Shown here in pieces: positions 5,310-54,394 of a stretch of 64,000 bases of DNA. Every line of letters begins with the position of its first letter. Positions within the stretch are counted from its first letter, which is position 1. This stretch comes from Rhodocyclaceae bacterium (GTDB taxonomy: Bacteria > Pseudomonadota > Gammaproteobacteria > Burkholderiales > Rhodocyclaceae), in assembly GCA_026646875.1 (NCBI GenBank), contig JAPKHL010000005.1, positions 24,912 through 88,911 on the forward strand, written 5' to 3'. The position numbers and the translations under genes were made by a program. The notes under the pieces are model-generated. The model saw nothing but the letters and a program-made list of their open reading frames with translations. It had not been told where the DNA came from and did no database searches.

Positions 5310-5876
5310 TCAGCGCCCGCCCAGCGCCGCGTGCCGGAAGCAGCCGACGAGGTGGTCGTTGACCATGCCGGCAGACTGCATGAAGGCGTAGCAGATCGTC
5401 GGCCCGACAAAGCGGAAGCCGGCGCGCGCCAGGGCCCGGCTCATGGCCTCCGACTGCGGCGTGGCGGCCGGCACCTCGGCCAGCGTGCGCCAGGCGTTCT
5501 GGCGCGGCGTGTGATCAACGAAGCGCCACAGGAAATCAGCCAGGGAACCGCCCCCTTCGCGCAGCGCCAGACAGGCGCGGGCATTGCCGATGGTCGCGAG
5601 GATCTTCGCCCGGTTGCGCACGATGCCGGCGTCGGCCAGCAGGGCAGCGACCTTCGCGTCATCATAGGCAGCGACACGCTGCGGATCGAAATCGTCGAAC
5701 ACCCGCCGGTAGTGCGCCCGCTTGCGCAGGATCGTCGCCCACGACAAACCCGCCTGCGCCCCTTCCAGACACAGCAGCTCGAATAGCGCGCGTTCGTCGC
5801 GCAGCGGTACGCCCCACTCCTCGTCGTGATACGCCCGGTACAGATCGAAGCCCTCGCACCACGGACAGCGCTCCAT
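5310..5876 (-). CDS. tag: DNA-3-methyladenine glycosylase I
   Basis: The internal ATG gives MERCPWCEG...YHDEEWGVP, the Tag zinc-snap N-terminus. Confidence 0.9.
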   Translation of the reverse strand: MERCPWCEGFDLYRAYHDEEWGVPLRDERALFELLCLEGAQAGLSWATILRKRAHYRRVFDDFDPQRVAAYDDAKVAALLADAGIVRNRAKILATIGNARACLALREGGGSLADFLWRFVDHTPRQNAWRTLAEVPAATPQSEAMSRALARAGFRFVGPTICYAFMQSAGMVNDHLVGCFRHAALGGR

Positions 5877-5958
5877 CGCATCGCTCCGGCGGATAAGGAT
5901 GGGGAGGATTGTAAATAAAGCCAGCGGATGAGGAGATTGTTGCTGCATCTGGAGCAAA

Positions 5959-5989
5959 CAAAAAGGCCAGTCCTAAGACTGGCCTTTTT
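5959..5989. terminator. bidirectional rho-independent terminator
   Basis: Hairpin GGCCAGTC-ctaa-GACTGGCC flanked by an A-run and a T-run, immediately downstream of tRNA-Pro on the minus strand. Confidence 0.7.
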
Positions 5990-6000
5990 GCCTGAAACAT

Positions 6001-6078
<78 letters not shown>

Positions 6079-6113
6079 CAGCTTTAAATTATAACCGGAA
6101 ATCGGGATAAAAC

Positions 6114-6476
6114 TCAAACTTTCAGGATTTCGGCAATTTTCAGCAACTCGGCGCGGAGGCTTTCGGGCGTCATCGATTCGCCGGACGACGAGGCGTCGCC
6201 GAGATCCTCCAGACGATTGCGCGCGCCGCTGATGGTGAAGCCCTGGCTGTAGAGGAGCTCGCGGATGCGGCGGACGAGCAGGACTTCATGGTGCTGGTAA
6301 TAGCGACGATTGCCGCGCCGCTTGACCGGCTTGAGTTGCGTGAATTCCTGCTCCCAGTAGCGCAGGACGTGCGGTTTGACGCCGCACAGTTCGCTGACTT
6401 CACCGATGGTGAAGTAGCGCTTGGCCGGGATGGGCGGCAGGGGCTCGTTGCCGCCGTCTTTATGACTCGGTTCCAT
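6114..6476 (-). CDS. MerR-family transcriptional regulator
   Basis: [25 protein letters not shown] is a MerR-type HTH. The gene overlaps the 3' end of ihfA, a common arrangement. Confidence 0.85.
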
Positions 6477-6762
6477 GATAGGACTGCTCCACCTCGGCCT
6501 TCAGCTTCTGGCTGGCATGGAAAGTGACGACACGCCGCGCGGTGATGGGGATTTCCTCGCCGGTCTTGGGATTGCGGCCAGGCCGCTGGGGTTTGTCGCG
6601 CAGCTGGAAATTGCCGAAACCGGAGAGCTTGACGCCGTCGCCCCGCTCCAGGGCATTGCGGATTTCCTCGAAGAACGCTTCGACCATATCCTTGGCCTCG
6701 CGCTTGTTGAGGCCGACCTTCTCGAACAACAGATCTGCGAGCTCAGCTTTGGTAAGCGTCAT
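6460..6762 (-). CDS. ihfA: integration host factor subunit alpha
   Basis: 100 aa. [28 protein letters not shown]...[12 protein letters not shown] is the IHF/HU fold. Confidence 0.95.
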
Positions 6763-35937: not shown

Positions 35938-36302
35938 GGGGGCGACCTGGCTTCGACGTGGGTTGCAAAGCAGCGCAGGGCATACCGAGGACCAGTGACC
36001 TCGTAAATCCATCTGGAAATCAATAAACGCCAACGACGAGCGTTTCGCTCTCGCCGCCTAAAGCGGCGTGACCGCTGCACTGACTGGTCCCTGGGTCAGG
36101 TGGGGCAACCCACGGCAGCGTCATTTACAGGGACTCGCCCTTGCCAGGGTCACTTTGGCCGGGGCTAAATCCAAGGTGACTCGCCAGAAGCAAGCCTGTT
36201 CGGCCGGCGTGCCAAGGTTAAAACCCAATTGACCGGACTAAGTATGTAGAACTGCCTGTAGAGGACTTGCGGACGGGGGTTCGATCCCCCCCGCCTCCAC
36301 CA
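35938..36302 (+). ncRNA. ssrA: tmRNA (SsrA)
   Basis: GGGGGCGACCTGGCTTCGACG 5' end and a tRNA-like 3' end GGACGGGGGTTCGATCCCCCCCGCCTCCACCA. The tag reading frame at 36029-36061 encodes ANDERFALAA*. Confidence 0.95.
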
Positions 36303-36610: not shown

Positions 36611-37084
36611 TCACCCGGGTGGCGCGAGCACGCGCATCTGGTCGCCCCAGGCATTGGGCCAGGGGCGGCGCATCACCTTCTCCAGCACGGCATCGGGCGA
36701 GCCAACCAGCCGTTCCACGACCTCCGGGGCCAGCAGCGTCAGCCGCATGACCCGGCGCACCTGTGTCACGTCCGTGCCTTCGGCCTCGGCGATCTCGGCT
36801 ACTGATGCCGCCCGCTGCTCATCCAGCAGGCGTTGCCAGTGGTGCGCCAGTCCGAGCGCCCGCATCAACGCGGTGTCCTGCGCGGCCGACCGGGCTTCCC
36901 GCTCCCGGGTGGCCTCGGACAGAAATTCCTGCGGCGCGTCCAAGGGCGTGATGACCTGCTTCTTCAGCCCCCGCTTCACCAGCGTCCAGGGCACGAAGGT
37001 TTCCAGTTGCACGCCGCCTGCCGGGTTCGGCAGTTGATAGGTGACCGGATCACCCTTGAACCGGCCCCGGTGCTTCTTGCTCAT
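36611..37084 (-). CDS. small recombinase-associated protein, paralog 2 (RLTLLAP motif, putative HTH)
   Basis: 157 aa. The ATGA overlaps the upstream gene. It shares ETFVPxT...IAxxEGxxxxxVxRxMRLTLLAPxxxExL with 37081..37452. Confidence 0.7.
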   Translation of the reverse strand: MSKKHRGRFKGDPVTYQLPNPAGGVQLETFVPWTLVKRGLKKQVITPLDAPQEFLSEATREREARSAAQDTALMRALGLAHHWQRLLDEQRAASVAEIAEAEGTDVTQVRRVMRLTLLAPEVVERLVGSPDAVLEKVMRRPWPNAWGDQMRVLAPPG

Positions 37085-37452
37085 GCGTCCTCCTCAAAGC
37101 GCTTCACGATCTGGCGTTGCGCCTCCCAATCCACCGGCAGCGGGTTGCGCTGGAACCAGATCAGGTTCATCCGGCGCGGCTGCCGCCCGGCCATCAGCAG
37201 TTCGAGGATGTCAGGCGCGAGCAGGGTCAGGCGCATCAGCTCGTTGGGCACCGAGGGGTGCAGTCCTTCGGTCCGGGCAATGTCTGACCCACTCTTCATC
37301 ACACCGGTGTCCACGAGGTGCTGCCAGTAGAAACCGCGTGCCACCCCCTCCAGCAGCGTCACATCGTGGACGTGACGGTCGTCGGCGGCCACGCGCCGCG
37401 CGCCCCGGCGACGAAATGTCAGGGGCACAAAGGTTTCCAGTGTGTCGTCCAT
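37081..37452 (-). CDS. small recombinase-associated protein, paralog 1 (RLTLLAP motif, putative HTH)
   Basis: The ATG at 37452 overlaps the recombinase stop (ATGA). 123 aa, MDDTLETFVPLTFRRRG... Confidence 0.7.
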   Translation of the reverse strand: MDDTLETFVPLTFRRRGARRVAADDRHVHDVTLLEGVARGFYWQHLVDTGVMKSGSDIARTEGLHPSVPNELMRLTLLAPDILELLMAGRQPRRMNLIWFQRNPLPVDWEAQRQIVKRFEEDA

Positions 37453-38831
37453 CAGGCTTCGACCTCCACCAGTTCCGCGCCGATGCCCCTCGGGGCGAAC
37501 TCGCCGATTAGGGCGTCCCAGCCCAGTTCCCGCCACTTCACCTTGATGCCCTGCACCTCGCCGACGTGGACGAGGTCGATGCGCTCGATCATCAGGTTGG
37601 CGATGCGGTGACGCTCGACCGGGAACAACTGATCCCACACGTCGTTGAGCCGTCCCATCGCCATCACCGTGGTGGCCTCGTCGATCTGGGCCCCATTGCG
37701 CTGGATGTGGCGCACCACCGATGCGATGGATTCCGGGCTGGTCAGCACCGTGCGGATCTGGGCCACCACCGCCGCCTCGATCTCAGGTGCAGGCAGGCGT
37801 TCGTAGCTCTTGCCCGGTGCTCCGAACCGGCTTTCCGACTTGGACACGTAGTAGTGGTACTTGCGCCCGTTCTTGCGCGAGTAGGTCGGGTACATCCGTT
37901 CGCCCGAGGGGGCGTACAGCAGGCCGCGCAGCAAGGCGTCGGTGCGCGACCGGATCTTGGTCTCCACCGACCGGGCGTGCCCATCCCTGGCCAGCACCGT
38001 GTGGACCTTGTCCCAAAGCTCCTGGTCGATGATCGGCGGGTGAGCGCCGGGGTACCAGTTCCCCTTGTGCGATAGCTCCCCCAGGTAGATGCGGTTGCGC
38101 AGCAGCTTGTGCAGGTACTTCTTGTCGATGCGTGTGCCGCTGCGGGTCTGGCCCTCCTGCGTCGTCCAGGCCTTGGTCGTGATGCCGTCGGCAGTGAGGC
38201 TGACGGCGATCTGGGTCGGCGAGCCGATGGTCAGCATCTCCTCGAAGATGCGACGCACCACCGCCGCCTCGGCCTCGTTGATGACCAACAGGCGGTTGTC
38301 GACGTCGTAACCCAGGGGCGGGACGCCGCCCATCCACATCCCCTTGCGCTTGGCGGCGGCAATCTTGTCGCGGATGCGCTCGCCGGTGACCTCGCGCTCA
38401 AACTGGGCGAAGGACAGCAGGACGTTGAGCATCAGCCGACCCATCGAGGTGGTGGTGTTGAACTGCTGGGTGACCGACACAAAGGACACCCCGTGGCGTT
38501 CGAACACTTCAACCATCTTGGAGAAGTCGGCCAAGCTGCGCGTCAGGCGGTCGATCTTGTAGACCACCACGATGTCGATCTGGCCGCGCTCGATGTCCGC
38601 CATCAGGCGTTTCAGCCCCGGCCGATCCGTGTTGCCGCCAGAGAAGCCGGGGTCGTCGTAGTCGTCGGCCACCGGAATCCAGCCCTCGGATCGCTGACTG
38701 GCGACGTAGGCGTGGCCCGCCTCCTTCTGCGCGTCGATGGAGTTGAACTCCTGGTCAAGCCGTTCATCCGAGGACACCCGGCAGTAGACGGCGCAGCGCT
38801 TGCGGGCCTTGGTGCTGGCAATCTCGCTCAT
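37452..38831 (-). CDS. large serine recombinase (resolvase/invertase N-domain + recombinase domain)
   Basis: 459 aa. CAVYCRVSSDE is the catalytic Ser region. VVYKIDRLTRS and a recombinase domain follow. Confidence 0.9.
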   Translation of the reverse strand: MSEIASTKARKRCAVYCRVSSDERLDQEFNSIDAQKEAGHAYVASQRSEGWIPVADDYDDPGFSGGNTDRPGLKRLMADIERGQIDIVVVYKIDRLTRSLADFSKMVEVFERHGVSFVSVTQQFNTTTSMGRLMLNVLLSFAQFEREVTGERIRDKIAAAKRKGMWMGGVPPLGYDVDNRLLVINEAEAAVVRRIFEEMLTIGSPTQIAVSLTADGITTKAWTTQEGQTRSGTRIDKKYLHKLLRNRIYLGELSHKGNWYPGAHPPIIDQELWDKVHTVLARDGHARSVETKIRSRTDALLRGLLYAPSGERMYPTYSRKNGRKYHYYVSKSESRFGAPGKSYERLPAPEIEAAVVAQIRTVLTSPESIASVVRHIQRNGAQIDEATTVMAMGRLNDVWDQLFPVERHRIANLMIERIDLVHVGEVQGIKVKWRELGWDALIGEFAPRGIGAELVEVEA

Positions 38832-39280
38832 CGCGCACCTCCCTTGCTCAGGCCAAAGAACAGCGGCCCCGACCAGTGCGCGCCCGTGATGTGGCGGGCC
38901 ACCGCCGTCAGGCTCTTGAAGTTGCGCCCCTGGTACTCAAACAGCCCCTCGGCGGTGACTGTCACCCGATGTTCGCGCTCGCCCCATTCGCGCAGCAGGA
39001 TCGTGCCCGGCGCGAAATCGAACTCGCGCGGCTTGGCCCGCAGCTTGATCTTGGAGTGTTTTGCGCCGATGGCTTCCAGGCGCTGCTTGGTCTCGGGCGC
39101 AAGGCCACCGAAGGCTTCCTCCTGCAGCTTGTAGGCGAGACGGGACTCGACGTGCGTGCGGTTGGGGTAGTCCGGGCGACGCGGGAAATACCGATCCCAC
39201 ACCGTCCAGAGCTCGGACATCGGCAGGCAGGCCAGCTCCGCAATCCGCGCGGCGACGGATGCTTGTTTCTCGTTCATCAC
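38828..39280 (-). CDS. DUF2924-like protein
   Basis: 150 aa whose stop overlaps the recombinase start. The ...FKSLTAVARHITGAHWSGPLFFGL tail is typical of the family found upstream of serine recombinases. Confidence 0.75.
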   Translation of the reverse strand: MMNEKQASVAARIAELACLPMSELWTVWDRYFPRRPDYPNRTHVESRLAYKLQEEAFGGLAPETKQRLEAIGAKHSKIKLRAKPREFDFAPGTILLREWGEREHRVTVTAEGLFEYQGRNFKSLTAVARHITGAHWSGPLFFGLSKGGAR

Positions 39281-39305
39281 AACTTCTCCTCTTGATAGGG
39301 GGTTG

Positions 39306-39337
39306 TATGAACGCGCTGGTCGGGCAGGAAGCCAAGG
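39306..39337 (-). promoter_or_regulatory. copy D of the 32-nt conserved motif (AACGCGCTG-N9-GAAGCCAAG on the plus strand)
   Basis: Lies 25 nt upstream of the DUF2924 start. Aligns without gaps to the copies at 54762, 55422 and 55723. Confidence 0.7.
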
Positions 39338-39584
39338 CCAACTTCTCTCTGTTTTGGTTCATCCGCAGCAAGGGTGCGGACGATGGCAGCCGCAAGGATG
39401 GCGGCGATTTCGCCAGCACGGGCGCTGGCGCTCATCTCCGTGGGAGATGCGAGTTCGAGGTTCTTCATGACGGCTCCGAGGAATTGCAACCGTCAGGGAT
39501 AGTGAGCCTGATCTTCCGAAGCGGATGGCAACGCAGGGTAATCGTGACCGCCAGTCATGAATCCATTGCGCGTTAACGAAACAG

Positions 39585-39613
39585 TTGACAGAGTGCCTCT
39601 TGGCCTCTACCAT
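39585..39613 (+). promoter_or_regulatory. sigma70-like promoter of the XRE/ImmA operon
   Basis: TTGACA-17 nt-TACCAT, 35 nt upstream of the ATG at 39649. It is bracketed by the inverted GTTAACGA(A)ACAG repeats at 39572-39584 and 39614-39624. Confidence 0.6.
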
Positions 39614-39619
39614 CTGTCG

Positions 39620-39637
39620 TTAACTAATCACGCAATC
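39620..39637 (+). promoter_or_regulatory. operator-like box 1 (TTAACTAATCACGCAATC)
   Basis: 15/18 identical to the box at 40797-40814. Lies between the -10 element and the XRE start codon. Confidence 0.6.
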
Positions 39638-39648
39638 AGGTCACAACC

Positions 39649-39927
39649 ATGCCCTTTGGAGCATTCATCCGCAAGAAGCGCGAAGAGAAAGGCATTCAGA
39701 TGAATGACTTTGCGCGCCAGCTGGAGATATCACCCGCCTACTGGTCGCGCATCGAGCGCGACATGGAAAAACCGCCCAAGGACGAGCTGATCCGTAAGGC
39801 GGCCGAGATCCTTGGAATCAGCGCCGACGACGCTTTCGTCGAGGCCAGTCGCCTGCCTCCCGACATCCGCGATGATGTTGGCAACCTGGTTCGGATGTAC
39901 CGCCGGAACGTGACGGAGAAGAAGTGA
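39649..39927 (+). CDS. XRE-family helix-turn-helix regulator
   Basis: 92 aa. IRKKREEKGIQMNDFARQLEISPAYWSRIERD is an HTH_3-type motif. Confidence 0.88.
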   Translation: MPFGAFIRKKREEKGIQMNDFARQLEISPAYWSRIERDMEKPPKDELIRKAAEILGISADDAFVEASRLPPDIRDDVGNLVRMYRRNVTEKK

Positions 39928-40740
39928 ATGGCGGTACTGACTCTCGACTACCGGTGCTGCGACCGGAAGCGCCCGCTGTACATCAAGCACATTGAGGTCG
40001 AACGCATCGCCGCGACCGCGCGCCAGCAACTGGTCGCGGACAGCATCGATGCCGTTTCTTTCGACGCGCTGCGGCAGATCTCCGGCCTGAAGATCAACGG
40101 CATCGACTTCGCGCTGGAGGTCAGCACCGACTACTCCGTGCATGACGAGCAAGGCAACCACGTCTTCGGCGTCTGTGAATTCGACCCCGCTATGCCCGAC
40201 GCCGCGATGGTGTCCATCTCGCCCGTGGGTGAGAGTCTCAGCGAACTGCTGGCCCTCAGCACCTTGGCCCACGAGCTGGGCCACGCCGTGTTCGACGCCC
40301 CCGGCTGGGTTGTTCAGGGCAGCAAGGGTCCCGGGTTGTTCGATGACATCGAACCGACGATGCAACGCGCCTACCGCACCACGACGCCGGACAGCGACCA
40401 CTTGTCCAAGTCACTATCTGCGAAGCCAACGACGGAAGAACACTTCGCCGAGCTGCGCGCCAACGAGTTCATGGGCTCCTTGCTGGTGCCTCGCCAACGC
40501 ATCATCGCCGCCGTCGAAGAGCTTGCGCCCCAGCACGACATCACCATCCATCGCCATCCTTCAACCGATCCCGACCACCCCGGCACGGCCCTGCGCATCA
40601 AGGCGAACGGCGACCTGGGAGTCTTGGAGATGGATCGCTTCGAGAAAGCCTTGGCGACGCGCTTCGGTGTCAATCCACGGTTCATCCAAGTACGTCTGAA
40701 CCGTTATGGCCTGACCACTCAGGAGGCCACGATGCGCTGA
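39928..40740 (+). CDS. ImmA/IrrE-family zinc metallopeptidase
   Basis: 270 aa starting directly after the XRE stop, with HELGH and a downstream EFMGSLLVP motif. Confidence 0.8.
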   Translation: MAVLTLDYRCCDRKRPLYIKHIEVERIAATARQQLVADSIDAVSFDALRQISGLKINGIDFALEVSTDYSVHDEQGNHVFGVCEFDPAMPDAAMVSISPVGESLSELLALSTLAHELGHAVFDAPGWVVQGSKGPGLFDDIEPTMQRAYRTTTPDSDHLSKSLSAKPTTEEHFAELRANEFMGSLLVPRQRIIAAVEELAPQHDITIHRHPSTDPDHPGTALRIKANGDLGVLEMDRFEKALATRFGVNPRFIQVRLNRYGLTTQEATMR

Positions 40741-40761
40741 CCAGGATCTACCGCCTGTGGA

Positions 40762-40785
40762 GCCGACCTCGCGTCGGCGTTTTTT
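40762..40785 (+). terminator. rho-independent terminator after the ImmA-like gene
   Basis: GCCGAC-ctcgc-GTCGGC followed by GTTTTTT. Confidence 0.7.
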
Positions 40786-40796
40786 GAATCATTCGA

Positions 40797-40814
40797 TTAA
40801 CTGTTCGCGCAATC
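40797..40814 (+). promoter_or_regulatory. operator-like box 2 (TTAACTGTTCGCGCAATC)
   Basis: 15/18 identical to box 1. Lies 27 nt upstream of the ATG at 40841. Confidence 0.6.
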
Positions 40815-40840
40815 GCGCACTTTGTCAAAGGAACTTGCCT

Positions 40841-42265
40841 ATGCCAGCTGACCAAGCCTCAACAACAAAGAAAAGCACCAAGTTGGCGACGAGCCAGCCT
40901 GCAGCAAAACGTGCGCGTGAGCATCGATCCGATGAGGGCGCAAACATCCTGCCGAACGCAGAGAACTTCGTCAGCCTCGTGCGCAAGGTCGCGCGCCCCG
41001 GGCTGCTGGTGGATCTGCTCGAACGCGCCAGCGCGACGGCACTGCCGGAGTTGAAGGCATTGGCAGAAGCGGCCAAGGGCAAGTTGCCAGTCGAGTCGCG
41101 TCAGGCACTCTTTCATGCTGTCGGCAAATTGCCGGTGGCCGCCCAGTACAGCATCGAGTGTGCCGCCGAGCGAGTGATGCTCCTTGACGATGACTACGGG
41201 GCACAGGCCGTCTTGTCCCTGCTCAACGAAGAGCGTGCCGACGATGCCGCCATGCTGGCTGCGCCCAGCGACCGCTACAGCCGCGCCCTGTATCTGCACC
41301 TCTTGCAGGACTTTCCAGCGCAAGGCGCCCGCCGCGACGAACGCTTCGATCAGGCTGAGCATCTGCAAGTGATGCATCGTCAGTGGAAAAGCGACCACTA
41401 CTCCAGCCACTACCTGGGCCCCAAGGGCGTCGTGCCGAAGAGTGGGATCGACGTTCAAGAGGTGTTGCGCACACGCATTGCCGAACTGTTCCCGAAGGTG
41501 CCGAAGGATCAAATCCTGATCGAGCAATTCACGCGCCGAGATCTGTCATGCGAACAGGGTGATGACGATGATTGCGAAGCCGGTCAGTCGGCGCTGTTGC
41601 ACACGCTGACGGCGACCTTCAATGGCAAGACGGCCACGTTCCAGCAAGTGGCGAACGGGCATGTCGTCGACCACGAGGAACCCGCTGCGATGTCGGCCCG
41701 CTTCTCGTGGGAGCCGGATACTGGCTCACTCAGCGTGTTCTGCGAAGAACGGGAGGCGCGCCGCGAGCTGGCCACCGTCTTCCGTGATGTCGCGTTGGCG
41801 CACGAAGGCCAGATCGAGGACATGCCCATGCGGCAGTTCGACCTGCTCGGCTTTGCGACCTCCAAGATGCTGGACCGCCTCAAACGTGACCGGGTCGCAG
41901 GCATCGACGATATCTCGATCCTGCAGATCACGGTGGCCAAGCCGTTCGAGCAGACCTCAGAGTACGGCGGACGTGATGTGGTGCGGCAACTCTCCAGCAA
42001 GATGCAAATCACCCGCGACCGGCGCGACGGCCGCAACATCTATCAGGTTGCTTATGAGGACTATTGCGCCGAAGACCTGAGTCAGTACGCGCTTGTGCAG
42101 GTGAAGTTGGTCATGAGGATGTCCAAGACGCCACACCGCAAGGCGCACAACGTCGCTGTCCAGATCACCGCGCCGAACGGGCTGAACGACAAGAGCAGGA
42201 CCGACGACGACCGCAAGCGCGTGCAGGAACAGCTCATCAAGATCGGCGTGCTGAGCCAGTTCTGA
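40841..42265 (+). CDS. hypothetical protein (474 aa), no recognisable family
   Basis: ATG with an AAGGA RBS. The long ORF has normal, non-shadow composition. The N-terminus is K/A/S-rich and an acidic patch CEQGDDDDCEAG is present. Confidence 0.75.
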   Translation: MPADQASTTKKSTKLATSQPAAKRAREHRSDEGANILPNAENFVSLVRKVARPGLLVDLLERASATALPELKALAEAAKGKLPVESRQALFHAVGKLPVAAQYSIECAAERVMLLDDDYGAQAVLSLLNEERADDAAMLAAPSDRYSRALYLHLLQDFPAQGARRDERFDQAEHLQVMHRQWKSDHYSSHYLGPKGVVPKSGIDVQEVLRTRIAELFPKVPKDQILIEQFTRRDLSCEQGDDDDCEAGQSALLHTLTATFNGKTATFQQVANGHVVDHEEPAAMSARFSWEPDTGSLSVFCEEREARRELATVFRDVALAHEGQIEDMPMRQFDLLGFATSKMLDRLKRDRVAGIDDISILQITVAKPFEQTSEYGGRDVVRQLSSKMQITRDRRDGRNIYQVAYEDYCAEDLSQYALVQVKLVMRMSKTPHRKAHNVAVQITAPNGLNDKSRTDDDRKRVQEQLIKIGVLSQF

Positions 42266-42276
42266 GGAGGACGCCG

Positions 42277-43215
42277 ATGACGTCGCCGCATTTGAGCTTT
42301 TTCCTCGCGCTGGACAACCTCCCACGACTCGACGAATCAGTGCTGGCCGACAGGCTCGGGCGCGACCACCAGCAGTTTCTTCAGCGGCGCTGGATCGTGC
42401 CCGCAGGCCATCTCACCCATGTGATGGTGCCGTTTCTCGATTCCGAACAGGAAGTCGAAATCGATGTCGATGAGGACGCCGGTCGCTACAGCTACTGCAG
42501 TCCGCTGAACGGCAGAACCATCGTCCAACCGCTGGCGGGGATTGCCCTCTATTCCATCCAGATGGATTCCTGGCTCGCAGATCTGGCGGCGCTGATCGGC
42601 ATTGAGGAGCGGCGACGCTCGAGCCAGATCTGCCGGACACCGAATCACCTGTGGCACCTCGGTGAGCAGCGAATCGCTGGCACGCACGATTTCGCACCGG
42701 TGTTCGTTGGCCGAGCATGGTCACGCGCACCGCAGGACAAGATCACCGCAGTCCTTGCCGACACCGTGTGGCCGCGTGGTGGCGTTGTTCTGTGCCCAAG
42801 GCGAACCAATGCTTCGCTGCCACGTGACCACACGCTGCGCGGCTTCGATGAGTTCGTCCGCGTGACCGATGGCGCAGATGCGTTCGACACCGATGCCTTT
42901 GATCGTGTCCTGCGCGGCTACGCAACCAACGTGGGTGAGCCGGAACCGGTGCAGTTCTTCAATGGCAAGCGGCTCAAGCTCCCGCACATGGCGTCGTCCA
43001 TCGAACTCACCGAAGCGCGCGCCAAGATCATCAAGCTGATGTGGGGGACCGAAGGAAGTGCCCCGCCCGTGATGTCGTGGAAAGAGGTGAATGGTTCCGT
43101 CACCGTCAACACCGGCTTCCAATCCTTCGACGATGCCTTCGGCGACAAAGTAGCGCGTGAGGAGGTGATCGAGTGGGTTTCGCACGGTAAATACCGGGTT
43201 AGGCGCAACACATAA
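42277..43215 (+). CDS. hypothetical protein (312 aa), no recognisable family
   Basis: ATG 11 nt after the upstream stop, preceded by GAGGAGG. Confidence 0.75.
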   Translation: MTSPHLSFFLALDNLPRLDESVLADRLGRDHQQFLQRRWIVPAGHLTHVMVPFLDSEQEVEIDVDEDAGRYSYCSPLNGRTIVQPLAGIALYSIQMDSWLADLAALIGIEERRRSSQICRTPNHLWHLGEQRIAGTHDFAPVFVGRAWSRAPQDKITAVLADTVWPRGGVVLCPRRTNASLPRDHTLRGFDEFVRVTDGADAFDTDAFDRVLRGYATNVGEPEPVQFFNGKRLKLPHMASSIELTEARAKIIKLMWGTEGSAPPVMSWKEVNGSVTVNTGFQSFDDAFGDKVAREEVIEWVSHGKYRVRRNT

Positions 43216-43300
43216 ACGCCCCCATAAATCGAGCCAGACACGGCCCATAAACCCGTGCGGAGACTGCGATGTGCCCATTTCATACAGGAGGCACATCGAA

Positions 43301-43558
43301 ATGCAAACCTACTTCACCAACGCAACATCTGGCCAGACTCCGGCCAAACCCGGTGCGCCACAGCGCATCGCCCTTGACGAAAACGAGCTGGCCATCCGCT
43401 GGGGGCTTTCCGTCAAGACCCTGCGCCGCTGGCGGCAGGAACAACTCGGCCCGGTCTTCTGCAAGCTCGGTGCCCGCGTCACCTACCTGATCTCCGAGGT
43501 CGAAGCCTTCGAGCGTCGCGTTTCGCGGCACTCGACCTTCACTCGTGCATACCAGTGA
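43301..43558 (+). CDS. small HTH DNA-binding protein (AlpA/excisionase-like)
   Basis: LAIRWGLSVKTLRRWRQEQLGPVFCKLGARVTY is an HTH_17-type motif. AGGAGG RBS. Confidence 0.7.
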   Translation: MQTYFTNATSGQTPAKPGAPQRIALDENELAIRWGLSVKTLRRWRQEQLGPVFCKLGARVTYLISEVEAFERRVSRHSTFTRAYQ

Positions 43559-51689: not shown

Positions 51690-53135
51690 TTGGCGGGTTT
51701 TGCTTTTGGGACTTCCACTTTGAACACGCTCAACGTCGAGTACCGCAAGGTCGAGGCGCTGATTCCCTACGCCCGCAATCCGCGCACGCACGCCGAAAGC
51801 CAGATCGCCAAGATCGCGGCCAGCATCGTCGAGTACGGCTGGACGAACCCGATCCTCGTCGACGGCGACAACGGCATCATCGCCGGGCACGGGCGTTTGG
51901 CCGCTGCGCGCAAGCTCGGCCTGGATCAGGTGCCGGTGATCGAACTGGCCCATCTAACCGTCGCGCAGAAGCGGGCACTCGTGATCGCCGACAACCGGCT
52001 GGCACTGGATGCGGGCTGGGACGAAGAAATGCTCGCCCTGGAACTGGCTGAGCTGTCCGACGCGGGATACGACCTCGCTCTGACCGGCTTCGAGGATGCC
52101 GAGATCGAGGCACTGCTCACCAGTGCGGCGGCCGTCGCAGATGATGAATCAGAGTCCGAAGCCGACGAGCCTGACGCGGCTGACGACGTGCCGGAAGCAC
52201 CCGTCGTGGCAGTGTCCCGGCCGGGCGATGTCTGGGCGATTGGCCCGCACCGCCTGATCTGTGGTGACGCCACCGACCGGGACGTGGTCGCTGCGCTGAT
52301 GCAGGGTGAAGTCTCTCGCCTGTGCTTCACCTCGCCGCCCTACGGCAACCAGCGCGACTACACCTCGGGCGGCATCTCCGATTGGGACGGCCTGATGCGC
52401 GGCGTGTTCGCACACCTGCCGATGGCAGGCGACGGTCAGGTGTTGGTCAACCTGGGCCTCATCCACCGCGACAACGAGGTCATCTCGTATTGGGACGCTT
52501 GGCTGGGCTGGATGCGCCAGCAGGGCTGGCGGCGCTTTGCGTGGTACGTCTGGGACCAGGGGCCGGGGATGCCCGGCGACTGGGCAGGCCGCTTCGCGCC
52601 GAGCTTCGAGTTCGTCTTCCACTTCAACCGGGAGAGCCGTAAGCCGAACAAGATCGTCCCCTGCAAGCACGCAGGCCAGGAATCCCACCTGCGCGCCGAC
52701 GGGTCGTCCACCGCGATGCGCGGCAAGGATGGCGAGGTGGGCGGCTGGACGCACAAGGGGCTGCCGACGCAGGACACGCGCATCCCCGACAGCGTGATCC
52801 GCGTGATGCGCCACAAGGGCAAGATCGGTCAGGACATCGACCACCCCGCCGTGTTCCCGGTGGCGCTGCCGGAGTTCGTCATCGAGGCCTATACGGATGC
52901 GGGCGACATCGTGTTCGAACCCTTCGGCGGCAGCGGCACAACGATGCTGGCCGCCGAGCGCACCGGTCGGATCTGCCGCAGCGTGGAAATCGCCCCGCAG
53001 TACGTGGACGTCGCCATCAAACGCTTCCAGCAGAATCATCCCGGGGTGCCGATCACCCTGATCGCCACCGGCCAGTCCTTCGAGCAAGTAGTCGCCGAGC
53101 GCGCCGCCACCGTTAATGCCGAGGTGCTGACATGA
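51690..53135 (+). CDS. ParB-like N-terminal domain fused to a DNA methyltransferase (N6A/N4C type), copy 1
   Basis: ParB box GHGRLAAARKLG and catalytic TSPPY motif. No ATG is available; candidate TTG starts are at 51690 and 51720. Confidence 0.85.
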   Translation: MAGFAFGTSTLNTLNVEYRKVEALIPYARNPRTHAESQIAKIAASIVEYGWTNPILVDGDNGIIAGHGRLAAARKLGLDQVPVIELAHLTVAQKRALVIADNRLALDAGWDEEMLALELAELSDAGYDLALTGFEDAEIEALLTSAAAVADDESESEADEPDAADDVPEAPVVAVSRPGDVWAIGPHRLICGDATDRDVVAALMQGEVSRLCFTSPPYGNQRDYTSGGISDWDGLMRGVFAHLPMAGDGQVLVNLGLIHRDNEVISYWDAWLGWMRQQGWRRFAWYVWDQGPGMPGDWAGRFAPSFEFVFHFNRESRKPNKIVPCKHAGQESHLRADGSSTAMRGKDGEVGGWTHKGLPTQDTRIPDSVIRVMRHKGKIGQDIDHPAVFPVALPEFVIEAYTDAGDIVFEPFGGSGTTMLAAERTGRICRSVEIAPQYVDVAIKRFQQNHPGVPITLIATGQSFEQVVAERAATVNAEVLT

Positions 53136-54394
53136 GCTGGCTGGCCGACAAGATCGAGCAATGGCCGACTGCCAAGCTGCTGCCCTACGCCCGCAACGCG
53201 CGCACCCATTCCGAGGAGCAGGTGGCGCAGATCGCCGCCAGCATCGCCGAGTTCGGATTCACCAATCCGATCCTGGCGGGCAGCGACGGCATCATCGTCG
53301 CAGGCCACGGTCGTCTCGCCGCCGCCCAGAAGCTGGGTCTGGAACGGGTACCGGTGGTCGTGCTCGATCACCTGACGCCGACCCAGCGCCGGGCTCTGGT
53401 CATTGCGGACAACCGCATCGCAGAGAACGCAGGCTGGGACGATGCGATGCTAAGGATCGAACTGGAAGCCTTACAACTCGAAGGCTTCGATCTGGACATC
53501 ACCGGCTTCGACGCCGACGCTCTGGCCGAACTGATCGCAGGAGACGAGCCGGACAACGAGGGTCAGACGGATGAGGATGCGGTGCCCGAGGTCAGCGAGA
53601 CACCCATCTCGCGTCCGGGCGATCTCTGGATCATGGGCCAGCACCGACTGCTGTGCGGCGACTCGACCGTGGCCGAGAGCTACGAGCGGATGATGCAGGG
53701 CGACCTGGCGGACATGGTCTTCACCGACCCGCCGTATAACGTGAACTACGCCAACAGTGCCAAGGACAAGATGCGCGGCAAGGATCGCGCGATCCTGAAC
53801 GACAACCTGGGTGACGGCTTCTACGACTTCCTGCTGGCAGCGCTGACGCCCACCGTCAGGCATTGCCGGGGCGGTATCTATGTGGCGATGTCCTCCAGCG
53901 AACTGGATGTGCTGCAGGCCGCCTTCCGCGCCGCCGGTGGCAAATGGTCGACCTTCATCATCTGGGCCAAGAACACCTTCACCCTGGGGCGCGCCGACTA
54001 CCAGCGCCAGTACGAGCCGATCCTCTACGGATGGCCCGAGGGGGCGACACGCCACTGGTGTGGTGACCGCGACCAGGGGGACGTCTGGAACATCAAGAAG
54101 CCGCAGAAGAACGACCTGCACCCGACGATGAAGCCGGTGGAGTTGGTCGAGCGTGCTATCCGCAATTCGAGCCGACCCGGCAACGTGGTTCTCGACCCGT
54201 TCGGTGGCTCTGGAACCACGCTGATTGCTGCCGAGAAGTCAGGCCGCTCTGCGCGACTGATCGAACTCGACCCGAAGTACGTGGATGTGATCGTGCGCCG
54301 GTGGGAGGAGTTCACTGGTAAGCAGGCCACCCGCGAGGCGGATGGCGCGGTGCTTGATCAGGCGGCCAGCGATTCCTCGACGATCTCGCAGTGA
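53132..54394 (+). CDS. ParB-like N-terminal domain fused to a DNA methyltransferase, copy 2
   Basis: ParB box GHGRLAAAQKLG, DPPY motif and FGGSGTT SAM motif. The ATGA overlaps copy 1. Confidence 0.88.
   Translation: MSWLADKIEQWPTAKLLPYARNARTHSEEQVAQIAASIAEFGFTNPILAGSDGIIVAGHGRLAAAQKLGLERVPVVVLDHLTPTQRRALVIADNRIAENAGWDDAMLRIELEALQLEGFDLDITGFDADALAELIAGDEPDNEGQTDEDAVPEVSETPISRPGDLWIMGQHRLLCGDSTVAESYERMMQGDLADMVFTDPPYNVNYANSAKDKMRGKDRAILNDNLGDGFYDFLLAALTPTVRHCRGGIYVAMSSSELDVLQAAFRAAGGKWSTFIIWAKNTFTLGRADYQRQYEPILYGWPEGATRHWCGDRDQGDVWNIKKPQKNDLHPTMKPVELVERAIRNSSRPGNVVLDPFGGSGTTLIAAEKSGRSARLIELDPKYVDVIVRRWEEFTGKQATREADGAVLDQAASDSSTISQ

Follow-up and report, generated by a model that had tools for sequence, protein, structure and literature searches.

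A conserved protein pair beside the probable lysogeny switch of AcaML1-like prophages: a predicted RdgC/RexA-type fold with a novel partner

We analyzed a stretch of 64,000 nucleotides from a Rhodocyclaceae bacterium (GenBank assembly GCA_026646875.1, contig JAPKHL010000005.1, positions 24,912 to 88,911; the window from here on). Between 39.5 and 43.2 kb the window encodes a small XRE-type repressor, an ImmA/IrrE-type peptidase and two large proteins, which we call A and B. Judging by their homologues, A and B are a genuine pair. We read the region as the lysogeny-control (immunity) region of a temperate prophage related to Acidithiobacillus phage AcaML1, and A-B as a possible counterpart of the Rex system of phage lambda. 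For this overall picture, including the Rex-like role, we consider the chances to be somewhat short of even. Our confidence in the regulatory anatomy and in the pairing of A with B is much higher than our confidence in what the pair does. The A-B pair is best called a companion of the immunity region, in which a protein with a predicted RdgC/RexA-type fold is joined by a novel partner, and which belongs to no sequence family.

The four genes of the region are the following.

39649-39927, + strand: XRE/Cro-CI-type helix-turn-helix (HTH) repressor, 92 residues; Pfam HTH_3
39928-40740, + strand: ImmA/IrrE-type (M78) zinc metallopeptidase, 270 residues; motifs HELGH and ELRANEFMGSLLVP
40841-42265, + strand: protein A, 474 residues; AlphaFold2 (AF2) model compared by Foldseek with PDB and BFVD
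42277-43215, + strand: protein B, 312 residues; obligate partner of A, fused to A in AcaML1 Gp6

Pairing of A and B and their place beside the regulator

The open reading frames of A and B are 11 nucleotides apart, and a GAGGAGG ribosome-binding site overlaps the stop codon of A. A first-pass annotation of the window, made by a model from the sequence and its open reading frames, had described these two frames, their spacing and the ribosome-binding site, and we found all of them where it had placed them. It also raised the question whether the two proteins occur together elsewhere. They do so across genomes, and in AcaML1 they are a single polypeptide.

A and B have about 190 homologues each, and these lie on the same contigs. 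For comparison we collected 56 genomic loci that encode relatives of A. B accompanies A wherever downstream sequence existed, down to about 15-25% identity. An exhaustive profile search with A across 1.84 billion representatives returned 148 clusters (50% identity) at E≤1e-3, without a family name. Among these clusters is a distant subfamily of A, about 390 residues long and 17-25% identical. Behind such distant A proteins a B homologue was detected at E values of 1e-10 (locus L063), 1e-9 (L065) and 3e-6 (L064). In L067, L071, L074 and L075 a protein of B-equivalent length and position follows the A homologue, and the P0352 contig has a 318-residue gene in the B position. Several distant loci have A and B homologues whose called genes overlap.

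The strongest link between the two proteins comes from AcaML1 itself. In its Gp6 (AFU62851, 751 residues) the A profile covers residues 12-405 (E 3e-40) and the B profile residues 419-715 (E 1e-28). The fused form is found in a 104-member cluster in Acidithiobacillus and Tepidiphilus. Hence, the fusion is not an assembly artefact. Fusion of two proteins is classical evidence for joint action. A tblastn search of A and B against 50,697 phage records gave no match; the AcaML1 homologue was found by profiles only. The idea that AcaML1 lacks A-B, and that the pair is hence dispensable cargo, was rejected once Gp6 was recognized as the fusion.

Gene order around the pair is conserved. The recombinase, a DUF2924 protein and a small open reading frame occupy the minus strand in every locus with enough sequence. 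On the plus strand XRE, ImmA, A, B, HTH_17, p165 and AAA_24 follow each other in about 55 genomes. In all contexts examined, A-B has the integration module on one side and the HTH_17-led early/replication operon on the other, with a regulator next to it. The first-pass annotation had placed the pair in an integrase-proximal slot where temperate phages commonly carry cargo. A-B is not variable cargo, as it is in the same place in every relative examined, including the isolated phage AcaML1.

The regulator and its orientation differ between clades (the terminator and box O3 are described below).

XRE and M78, co-directional with A-B, with terminator and O3: the window's clade
XRE (106-108 residues) and M78 (about 300 residues), divergent from A-B: L063, L071-73, L074 and L075-76
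S24 repressor, divergent from A-B: L067
LexA_DNA_bind and S24, co-directional, 13 nucleotides upstream of A-B: P0352 contig
HTH_17 and PIN_3, co-directional with A-B, divergent from the early operon: AcaML1

The expectation that relatives of A-B sit next to XRE/ImmA pairs is thus borne out in part. XRE and M78 are found in many loci, but an S24 repressor (L067), an HTH protein with S24 (P0352) or an HTH_17 protein with a PIN protein (AcaML1) takes their place elsewhere. AcaML1 carries its A-B homologue in the same slot as the window, between the recombinase module and the HTH_17-led operon, and on the same backbone. The differences are the fusion in Gp6, its location on the opposite strand and the genes before it, which encode HTH_17 (Gp8) and PIN_3 (Gp7) proteins and not XRE and ImmA. 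Gp8 and Gp7 lie at 5562-6600 of the AcaML1 locus L070. Gp8 is annotated as an excisionase and is a 153-residue HTH_17 protein; Gp7 is a PIN_3-domain protein. Located upstream of the fused A-B gene, the two look like a regulator pair of toxin-antitoxin-like type. Gp8, which is divergent from Gp9, may be the lysogeny regulator of this phage.

The four genes also evolve together. In a comparison of at least 45 loci, the identities of XRE, ImmA, A and B to the window rise and fall together (Spearman rho 0.80-0.92). Between these four and recombinase, DUF2924, HTH_17, p165 or AAA_24, rho is 0.17-0.52. Because they co-diverge, XRE-ImmA-A-B appear to be exchanged as one block. The immunity regions of lambdoid phages are likewise exchanged as a block. 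Median identity is 62-66% for ImmA, A and B and 91-95% for the recombinase or AAA_24.

The putative XRE-ImmA switch and its operator-like boxes

The HTH_3 match of the XRE protein covers residues 7-60 (E 9e-11, 42.1 bits against a cut-off of 23), and the protein also matches PHROG transcriptional repressor families. For the peptidase we took three marks of M78 membership: an HExxH zinc motif, the motif E..AN.F...LL.P further downstream and a Pfam score for M78 that exceeds the cut-off. The second motif, ELRANEFMGSLLVP, sits about 60 residues past HELGH; robust M78 proteins of related loci show it as EA(E/D)(A/T)NxFAxxLLMP. At 25.7 bits the Peptidase_M78 match exceeds the Pfam cut-off of 22, but just 22 residues align and no single stretch passes. 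The XRE stop codon (TGA) and the ImmA start codon (ATG) are directly contiguous, which suggests translational coupling, and the XRE-ImmA pairing is repeated in about 50 loci. That a 92-residue XRE gene abuts a 270-residue HELGH gene of ImmA/IrrE type had been noted before; the sequence and the HTH_3 and M78 scores confirm it. The window's ImmA has no BLAST similarity to the roughly 300-residue M78 partners in distant A-B loci.

The XRE/ImmA half of the region is an ordinary member of the XRE/M78 repressor-protease family. ImmR/ImmA (ICEBs1, phi105), DdrO/IrrE and CapH/CapP likewise have a small XRE repressor immediately upstream of an HExxH M78 peptidase. Like them, the window has operator-like sites at the operon's own promoter and at a second target, as predicted from sequence. 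The window's peptidase differs by an N-terminal extension of about 100 residues, and PADLOC finds only weak matches, of XRE to capH (1.3e-5) and of ImmA to capP (4.6e-4). In this regulator family the M78 peptidase cleaves the XRE-type repressor after DNA damage, and CapH/CapP-like pairs lead many immune operons (bioRxiv 10.1101/2022.04.27.489752).

Boxes, promoter and terminator are arranged as follows.

39565-39576, - strand: box O1 (TTAACGCGCAAT), inverted, 8 nucleotides upstream of the XRE -35 element; strict pattern in 27 of 45 loci
39585-39613, + strand: sigma-70-like promoter of the XRE-ImmA operon, TTGACA-17-TACCAT; the sole promoter-like site in the region
39620-39637, + strand: box O2 (TTAACTAATCACGCAATC), between the -10 element and the XRE ATG; present in 44 of 45 loci
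40762-40785, + strand: intrinsic-terminator-like hairpin and T-run, between ImmA and A
40797-40814, + strand: box O3 (TTAACTGTTCGCGCAATC); present in all 45 loci
40797-40822, + strand: O3 with its invariant extension (TTAACnnnTCGCGCAATCGCGCACTT), ending 18 nucleotides before the A ATG

The pattern TTAACNNNTCNCGCAAT matches at 39620 and 40797, that is, twice in 64 kb against 0.03 expected occurrences. This upholds the first-pass observation of a common box at the XRE promoter and upstream of A. With a variable spacer there are three matches against 0.05 expected, and O1 is a third copy in addition to the two already noticed. In the 45 related loci (550 kb) TTAAC-N0-8-CGCAA occurs 116 times, always at O1 (27), O2 (44) or O3 (45). 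Since the only promoter-like site lies between O1 and O2, these two boxes bracket the XRE promoter.

An alignment of 37-41 distinct sequences covered the stretches that precede XRE and A. The -35 and -10 elements, the three boxes, the stem and T-run of the terminator and a block before A (TCGCGCAATCGCGCACTT) show little or no change, in contrast to the variable promoter spacer, hairpin loop and flanks. At O3 there is no signal of RNA structure (z = 0). Because O1 is inverted and O3 lacks such a signal, we favor the boxes as DNA sites bound by a protein and disfavor them as RNA elements.

A terminator scan recovered the hairpin and T-run at 40762-40785 that had been reported from the sequence. 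The hairpin, GCCGAC-CTCGC-GTCGGC at 40762-40778, is followed by GTTTTTTG. Its 6-bp stem contains five G-C pairs and its free energy of -10.5 kcal/mol is modest (z = -1.2). Among about 37 distinct relatives, stem and T-run never change, whereas the loop does. A G+C-rich hairpin thus stands directly before a T-run, and termination is predicted here from sequence.

In four divergent-type loci a strong promoter faces A (ATGCTTGACA-N17-18-GATAAT, TAATAG or TATCTT), with inverted repeats AAGTTCG..CGAACTT on either side of it, before the -35 and after the -10 element. This is the geometry of O1 and O2 around the promoter of the window. Because operator-like repeats bracket the promoter that faces A, a repressor-controlled promoter probably drives A-B directly in these loci. 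In the window's clade, XRE-ImmA, a modest terminator and the third operator-like box intervene between promoter and A-B. The earlier proposal that XRE controls A-B is plausible: O3 is invariant, and the XRE-type operators of distant loci bracket the promoter that drives A.

We propose the following mechanism. The XRE repressor would bind the TTAAC...CGCAA(T) boxes O1 to O3. At O1 and O2 it would regulate its own operon and probably also the leftward unit (small open reading frame, DUF2924 protein and recombinase); at O3 it would keep A-B off. On a DNA-damage signal, ImmA would cleave XRE, by analogy with ImmR/ImmA, DdrO/IrrE and CapH/CapP. Loss of XRE would derepress the promoter. Transcription could then reach A-B by reading through the terminator, from a weak TTGAAT-18-CGCAAT promoter that O3 overlaps, or by both routes. 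It would probably run on into the HTH_17-led early operon.

The same anatomy could serve defence. XRE/ImmA and A-B would then be a self-contained, damage-licensed anti-phage cassette, with a CapH/CapP-like regulator and A-B as a new effector of abortive infection or exclusion. We consider this unlikely. The weak capH/capP matches and the many immune operons led by such pairs agree with it, as does the co-divergence of XRE, ImmA, A and B as a block, in which ImmA, A and B evolve faster than recombinase or AAA_24. The neighborhood takes defence cargo (AbiEii/AbiEi in L071-73 and a PDDEXK/UvrD/DUF6361/PLD operon in L074), and a RexA-like fold of A, discussed below, would suit exclusion. Yet A and B have no PADLOC match, and their position is constant in all relatives seen and in AcaML1, unlike that of variable cargo. 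A-B pairs with XRE/M78 no more readily than with classical S24 phage repressors. We saw no further CI-like repressor, either in the window's prophage or in the complete annotation of AcaML1. XRE/ImmA would hence be needed as the phage's own switch. Furthermore, no killing effector is obvious, since B lacks conserved catalytic residues and no membrane segment occurs in A or B. The first-pass view of XRE/ImmA as the dedicated regulator of a defence cassette thus gives way to a simpler one, the prophage's own lysogeny switch, because A-B pairs with other regulators too.

Predicted fold and possible role of A-B

Sequence libraries do not recognize either protein. A and B have no match in Pfam, NCBIfam, PHROGs or PADLOC (no PADLOC family at E≤1), and profile searches of both against PDB sequences returned nothing meaningful. 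Pfam searches at E≤10 over 54 diverse members of the A family gave nothing recurrent and no RdgC (PF04381).

Structure prediction is more informative for A. Its AF2 model has a predicted local distance difference test score (pLDDT) of 75.7 and a predicted template-modeling score (pTM) of 0.49. It consists of a basic disordered tail (residues 1-32), a helical domain (about 33-184) and a beta-rich C-terminal region (about 185-474). In the Foldseek search of the PDB, ranks 1-3 are RdgC of Pseudomonas aeruginosa and Escherichia coli (2owy, 2owl; probability 0.97-0.98) and ranks 4-6 are Chl4/CENP-N, with probabilities of 0.66-0.98 over the top six. The top four matches in BFVD are phage proteins of about 320-370 residues (E 5e-5 to 7e-4, probability at least 0.99), one of them named 'Recombination-associated protein'. 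Matches to RdgC and phage RdgC-like proteins extend over about 330-375 aligned columns. RexA, RdgC, Iml3 and Chl4 are reported to have a common fold (PMC11077077), which makes the list of matches coherent. Thus, the C-terminal region of A is predicted to adopt an RdgC/RexA/Chl4-like fold. The description of A as family-less holds for sequence libraries but not for the model, which matches this fold class. The Foldseek comparison suggested with that description yields RdgC and Chl4/CENP-N at low template-modeling scores (TM-scores) for A and no PDB match for B.

The best structural matches in both libraries are thus RdgC, a recombination-associated, ring-forming DNA-binding protein (2owl, 2owy), and phage RdgC-like proteins. 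A also adjoins the recombination/replication module. There are differences too: Pfam RdgC is undetected in the 54 family members, the TM-scores are 0.18-0.34, and RdgC acts alone as a homodimer, whereas A always comes with its partner B and with an added N-terminal domain.

B gives fewer clues. Its model (pLDDT 73.8) has no Foldseek match in the PDB. Among distant homologues only Y73, G129 and R146 are invariant, which argues against an enzyme. The last 80 residues or so are basic (isoelectric point 9.5), with three predicted helices and a beta hairpin (H-H-H-E-E), so that the C-terminus may be winged-helix-like. The first-pass annotation had seen no transmembrane signature in either large protein. 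The hydropathy of B agrees with this, as its 19-residue Kyte-Doolittle windows never rise above 1.24. An hhalign comparison of the B profile with RexB, which has low power because the template is a single sequence, gave a probability of 0.1.

RexA of lambda is reported to have an RdgC-like fold, to bind DNA without specificity and to tip the switch towards the lytic state, and Rex-like pairs to adjoin the repressor in either orientation (PMC11077077). Lambda RexA/RexB and the Rex-like pairs of actinobacteriophages are, like A-B, two-gene modules that lie beside the immunity repressor in either orientation and travel with the immunity region. The model of A matches the fold class of RexA (RdgC, Chl4/CENP-N). 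In contrast, neither sequence nor profile comparison reveals similarity to RexA or RexB. A has 474 residues and an extra N-terminal helical domain, and many relatives carry A-B on the repressed side of the switch, not co-transcribed with the repressor.

By position, inheritance as a block and fold class, A-B may be a counterpart of lambda Rex, in which A corresponds to RexA and B is a new soluble partner. The two proteins would form a single two-part, non-enzymatic DNA-binding module, with the RdgC/RexA-type fold of A and the winged-helix-like basic C-terminus of B. Acting on DNA, this module would bias or lock the lysis-lysogeny switch, exclude other phages, or both. In its most specific form this reading describes an unrecognized two-component system, in which a DNA-encircling RdgC/RexA-type protein and its new partner are licensed by a damage-cleavable repressor and lock the switch or exclude phages. 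One prophage lineage would then spread A-B through Burkholderiales, Xanthomonadales, P. aeruginosa, Stenotrophomonas, the Burkholderia cepacia complex, Nitrospira and Alphaproteobacteria. Taken together, these two claims are tentative, and we regard them as doubtful rather than probable.

Several observations weigh against a Rex-like role and against the regulation that we propose for it. The fold match of A is globally weak, as shown by the TM-scores given above and by the pTM of 0.49. RexA is absent from the top 50 PDB matches of the model. With hhalign, the A-family profile reached a probability of 0.1 against E. coli RdgC and 0.3 against lambda RexA, both single-sequence templates and hence comparisons of low power. 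B is a soluble protein of 312 residues, whereas RexB is a small multi-pass membrane protein. On the regulatory side, a promoter scan found no convincing sigma-70 promoter before A, and we infer the role of XRE as master repressor from its position only. The orientation of the regulator relative to A-B varies, so that expression in the lysogen, as for rexAB, and expression only after derepression are both possible. Lastly, every homologue of A and B carries the annotation 'hypothetical', and no paper that names either protein came up in literature searches by accession number and for DUF2924 prophages.

The RdgC matches can also be read more literally. A-B would then be an RdgC-like accessory of early lytic recombination or replication, which coats or encircles DNA and restrains RecA/RecFOR or shields phage ends. 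Replication itself would be handled by the phage's AAA_24/Sak4-like, single-strand-binding-like, PD-(D/E)XK exonuclease and D5 primase proteins. Like the defence cassette, this reading strikes us as rather improbable. RdgC and phage 'recombination-associated' proteins are indeed the best structural matches of A, and RdgC reportedly inhibits functions of RecA, LexA cleavage among them (PMC11077077). HTH_17-p165-AAA_24 and the genes after it follow A-B directly and in the same direction in most loci, and no terminator was detected between B and HTH_17. In the divergent-type relatives A comes first under the repressor-controlled rightward promoter. Gene arrangement elsewhere does not agree with such a role. 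The fused A-B gene of AcaML1 is on the opposite strand, together with HTH_17 and PIN, and divergent from the replication operon. In L071-73 an AbiE pair in opposite orientation separates A-B from the operon. Moreover, the genes with which A-B co-diverges are those of the regulator, not those of replication.

Two related ideas were dropped. A-B as the mere first core genes of the early replication operon is at odds with the opposite strand in AcaML1 and the AbiE pair in L071-73. A or B as recombination directionality factor or replication initiator does not fit either, as A-B co-diverges with the regulators and not with the recombinase.

Finally, A-B might be an anti-defence or host-takeover module, the first to be made after derepression, which neutralizes a host nuclease or immune sensor through DNA binding or mimicry. 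This purely inferential reading is very unlikely. The head-of-unit position resembles that of the early anti-host genes of lambdoid phages; A-B evolves faster than its neighbors and has no enzymatic motifs. On the other hand, there is no similarity to any known anti-defence protein, and the strict pairing with a regulator, including arrangements in which A-B would be co-transcribed downstream of it, is atypical for such genes.

A-B is a conserved, unnamed pair that accompanies the lysogeny switch of a whole temperate-phage lineage, with carriers that include prophages of P. aeruginosa, Stenotrophomonas maltophilia and the B. cepacia complex. If A has the RdgC/RexA fold and works with B on DNA, then RexA-like switch or exclusion factors would be far more widespread, and their partners more diverse, than the examples from lambda and actinophages suggest. 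A-B would also give a second tractable system in which to address a long-standing question, namely what Rex-type proteins do at the switch. Material for such work is available in AcaML1 of Acidithiobacillus caldus ATCC 51756 and in culturable type strains such as Extensimonas vulgaris DSM 100911. For structural work, the AcaML1 fusion is a ready-made construct.

The surrounding prophage, its relatives and its cargo sites

The prophage surrounds the immunity region with the following features.

35938-36302, + strand: transfer-messenger RNA gene ssrA (ARAGORN)
36611-37638, - strand: two small open reading frames between ssrA and recombinase; counterparts of AcaML1 Gp1 and Gp2
37452-38831, - strand: large serine recombinase, 459 residues; Pfam Resolvase, Recombinase and Zn_ribbon_recom
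38828-39280, - strand: DUF2924 protein, 150 residues; Pfam DUF2924, E 7e-50; syntenic in all loci
39277-39489, - strand: small open reading frame, 70 residues; leads the leftward unit; AcaML1 Gp5 counterpart
43210-43300, + strand: conserved B-HTH_17 gap; three (A/C)CATAAA direct repeats and an 8-bp stem
43301-43558, + strand: HTH_17 protein; AcaML1 Gp9 counterpart; leads the shared early/replication backbone

The prophage begins immediately 3' of ssrA, which is hence the probable integration site. In relatives it adjoins smpB/ssrA or occupies other sites. The serine recombinase corresponds to AcaML1 Gp3 in length and position, and the DUF2924 protein is its conserved companion. The 70-residue protein is 53-100% identical across loci and has no Pfam match; the two small frames next to ssrA have none either. 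AcaML1 Gp2 carries the annotation 'recombinase small subunit'.

After HTH_17 the early backbone continues with p165, AAA_24, P63C, DUF6511, a PD-(D/E)XK nuclease and a D5-type primase. Further prophage genes in the window encode two ParB-methylase fusions, a gpA-type terminase, a lambda-type portal, an S49 protease and capsid protein E. AAA_24 is 71% and p165 57% identical to AcaML1, and gene order agrees across the first 17 AcaML1 genes. The AAA_24 of Wolbachia phage WO is 49% identical to that of the window; neither A nor B was detectable near its gene. In the tandem genes at 51690-53135 and 53132-54394 a ParB_N domain is joined to an N6/N4 DNA methylase. The adjacent AcaML1 Gp24 and Gp25, annotated as 'DNA modification methylase', are probably their counterparts.

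The closest loci, with 98-100% identical proteins, come from Extensimonas vulgaris and from metagenome-assembled genomes of Thiomonas, Ottowia and others. Within Betaproteobacteria the family extends to other Burkholderiales (including Ralstonia, Hydrogenophaga and Comamonas) and to further members such as Dechloromonas. Beyond them it is found in Xanthomonas, Stenotrophomonas, P. aeruginosa, the B. cepacia complex and Candidatus Nitrospira defluvii. Paraburkholderia phage 437, judged from its paper, is an unrelated phage.

In Corticibacter populi (L012, 7437-10588) a deletion has brought a tail host-specificity-like gene directly up to the 3' end of the B homologue. The deletion removes the whole early and head region and leaves XRE-ImmA-A-B in place. 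We considered this locus as a minimal domesticated island and rejected the idea, because it is a prophage deletion remnant joined to tail genes.

The gap between B and HTH_17 has features of its own. Its (A/C)CATAAA repeats lie at 43210-16 (overlapping the B stop), 43222-28 and 43245-51. A further clade of this prophage family has CCGTAR in each of the three places. Because they co-vary, the repeats resemble binding sites for a protein of variable specificity. No promoter or terminator was detected in the gap. The true start of HTH_17 is likely the ATG at 43301. An 8-bp inverted repeat (GATGTGCC/GGCACATC, 43268-75 and 43290-97) brackets its ribosome-binding site (-15.2 kcal/mol, z = -2.9), and AcaML1 has a different 7-bp stem, GGGCTCC/GGAGCCC, in the same place. 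The stem may be a translational control element.

Several relatives carry cargo next to the immunity region. In L071-L073 (11304-12948) an AbiEii/DUF6088 (AbiE-type) pair on the opposite strand is inserted between the B homologue and HTH_17. Hence, this junction accepts defence cargo. In L074 (1-8861), from a Hyphomicrobiales metagenome-assembled genome, XRE-M78 leads a leftward operon of PDDEXK (899 residues), UvrD-helicase/PDDEXK (1055 residues), DUF6361 and PLD-like genes. On the other side stand A-B-HTH_17 and then no further phage genes. L074 may be a remnant with an uncharacterized helicase-nuclease system under XRE/M78 control. In L075-L076 (5930-7321) an RmuC-family gene lies immediately downstream of XRE-M78 and is co-directional with it, as cargo on the repressor operon.

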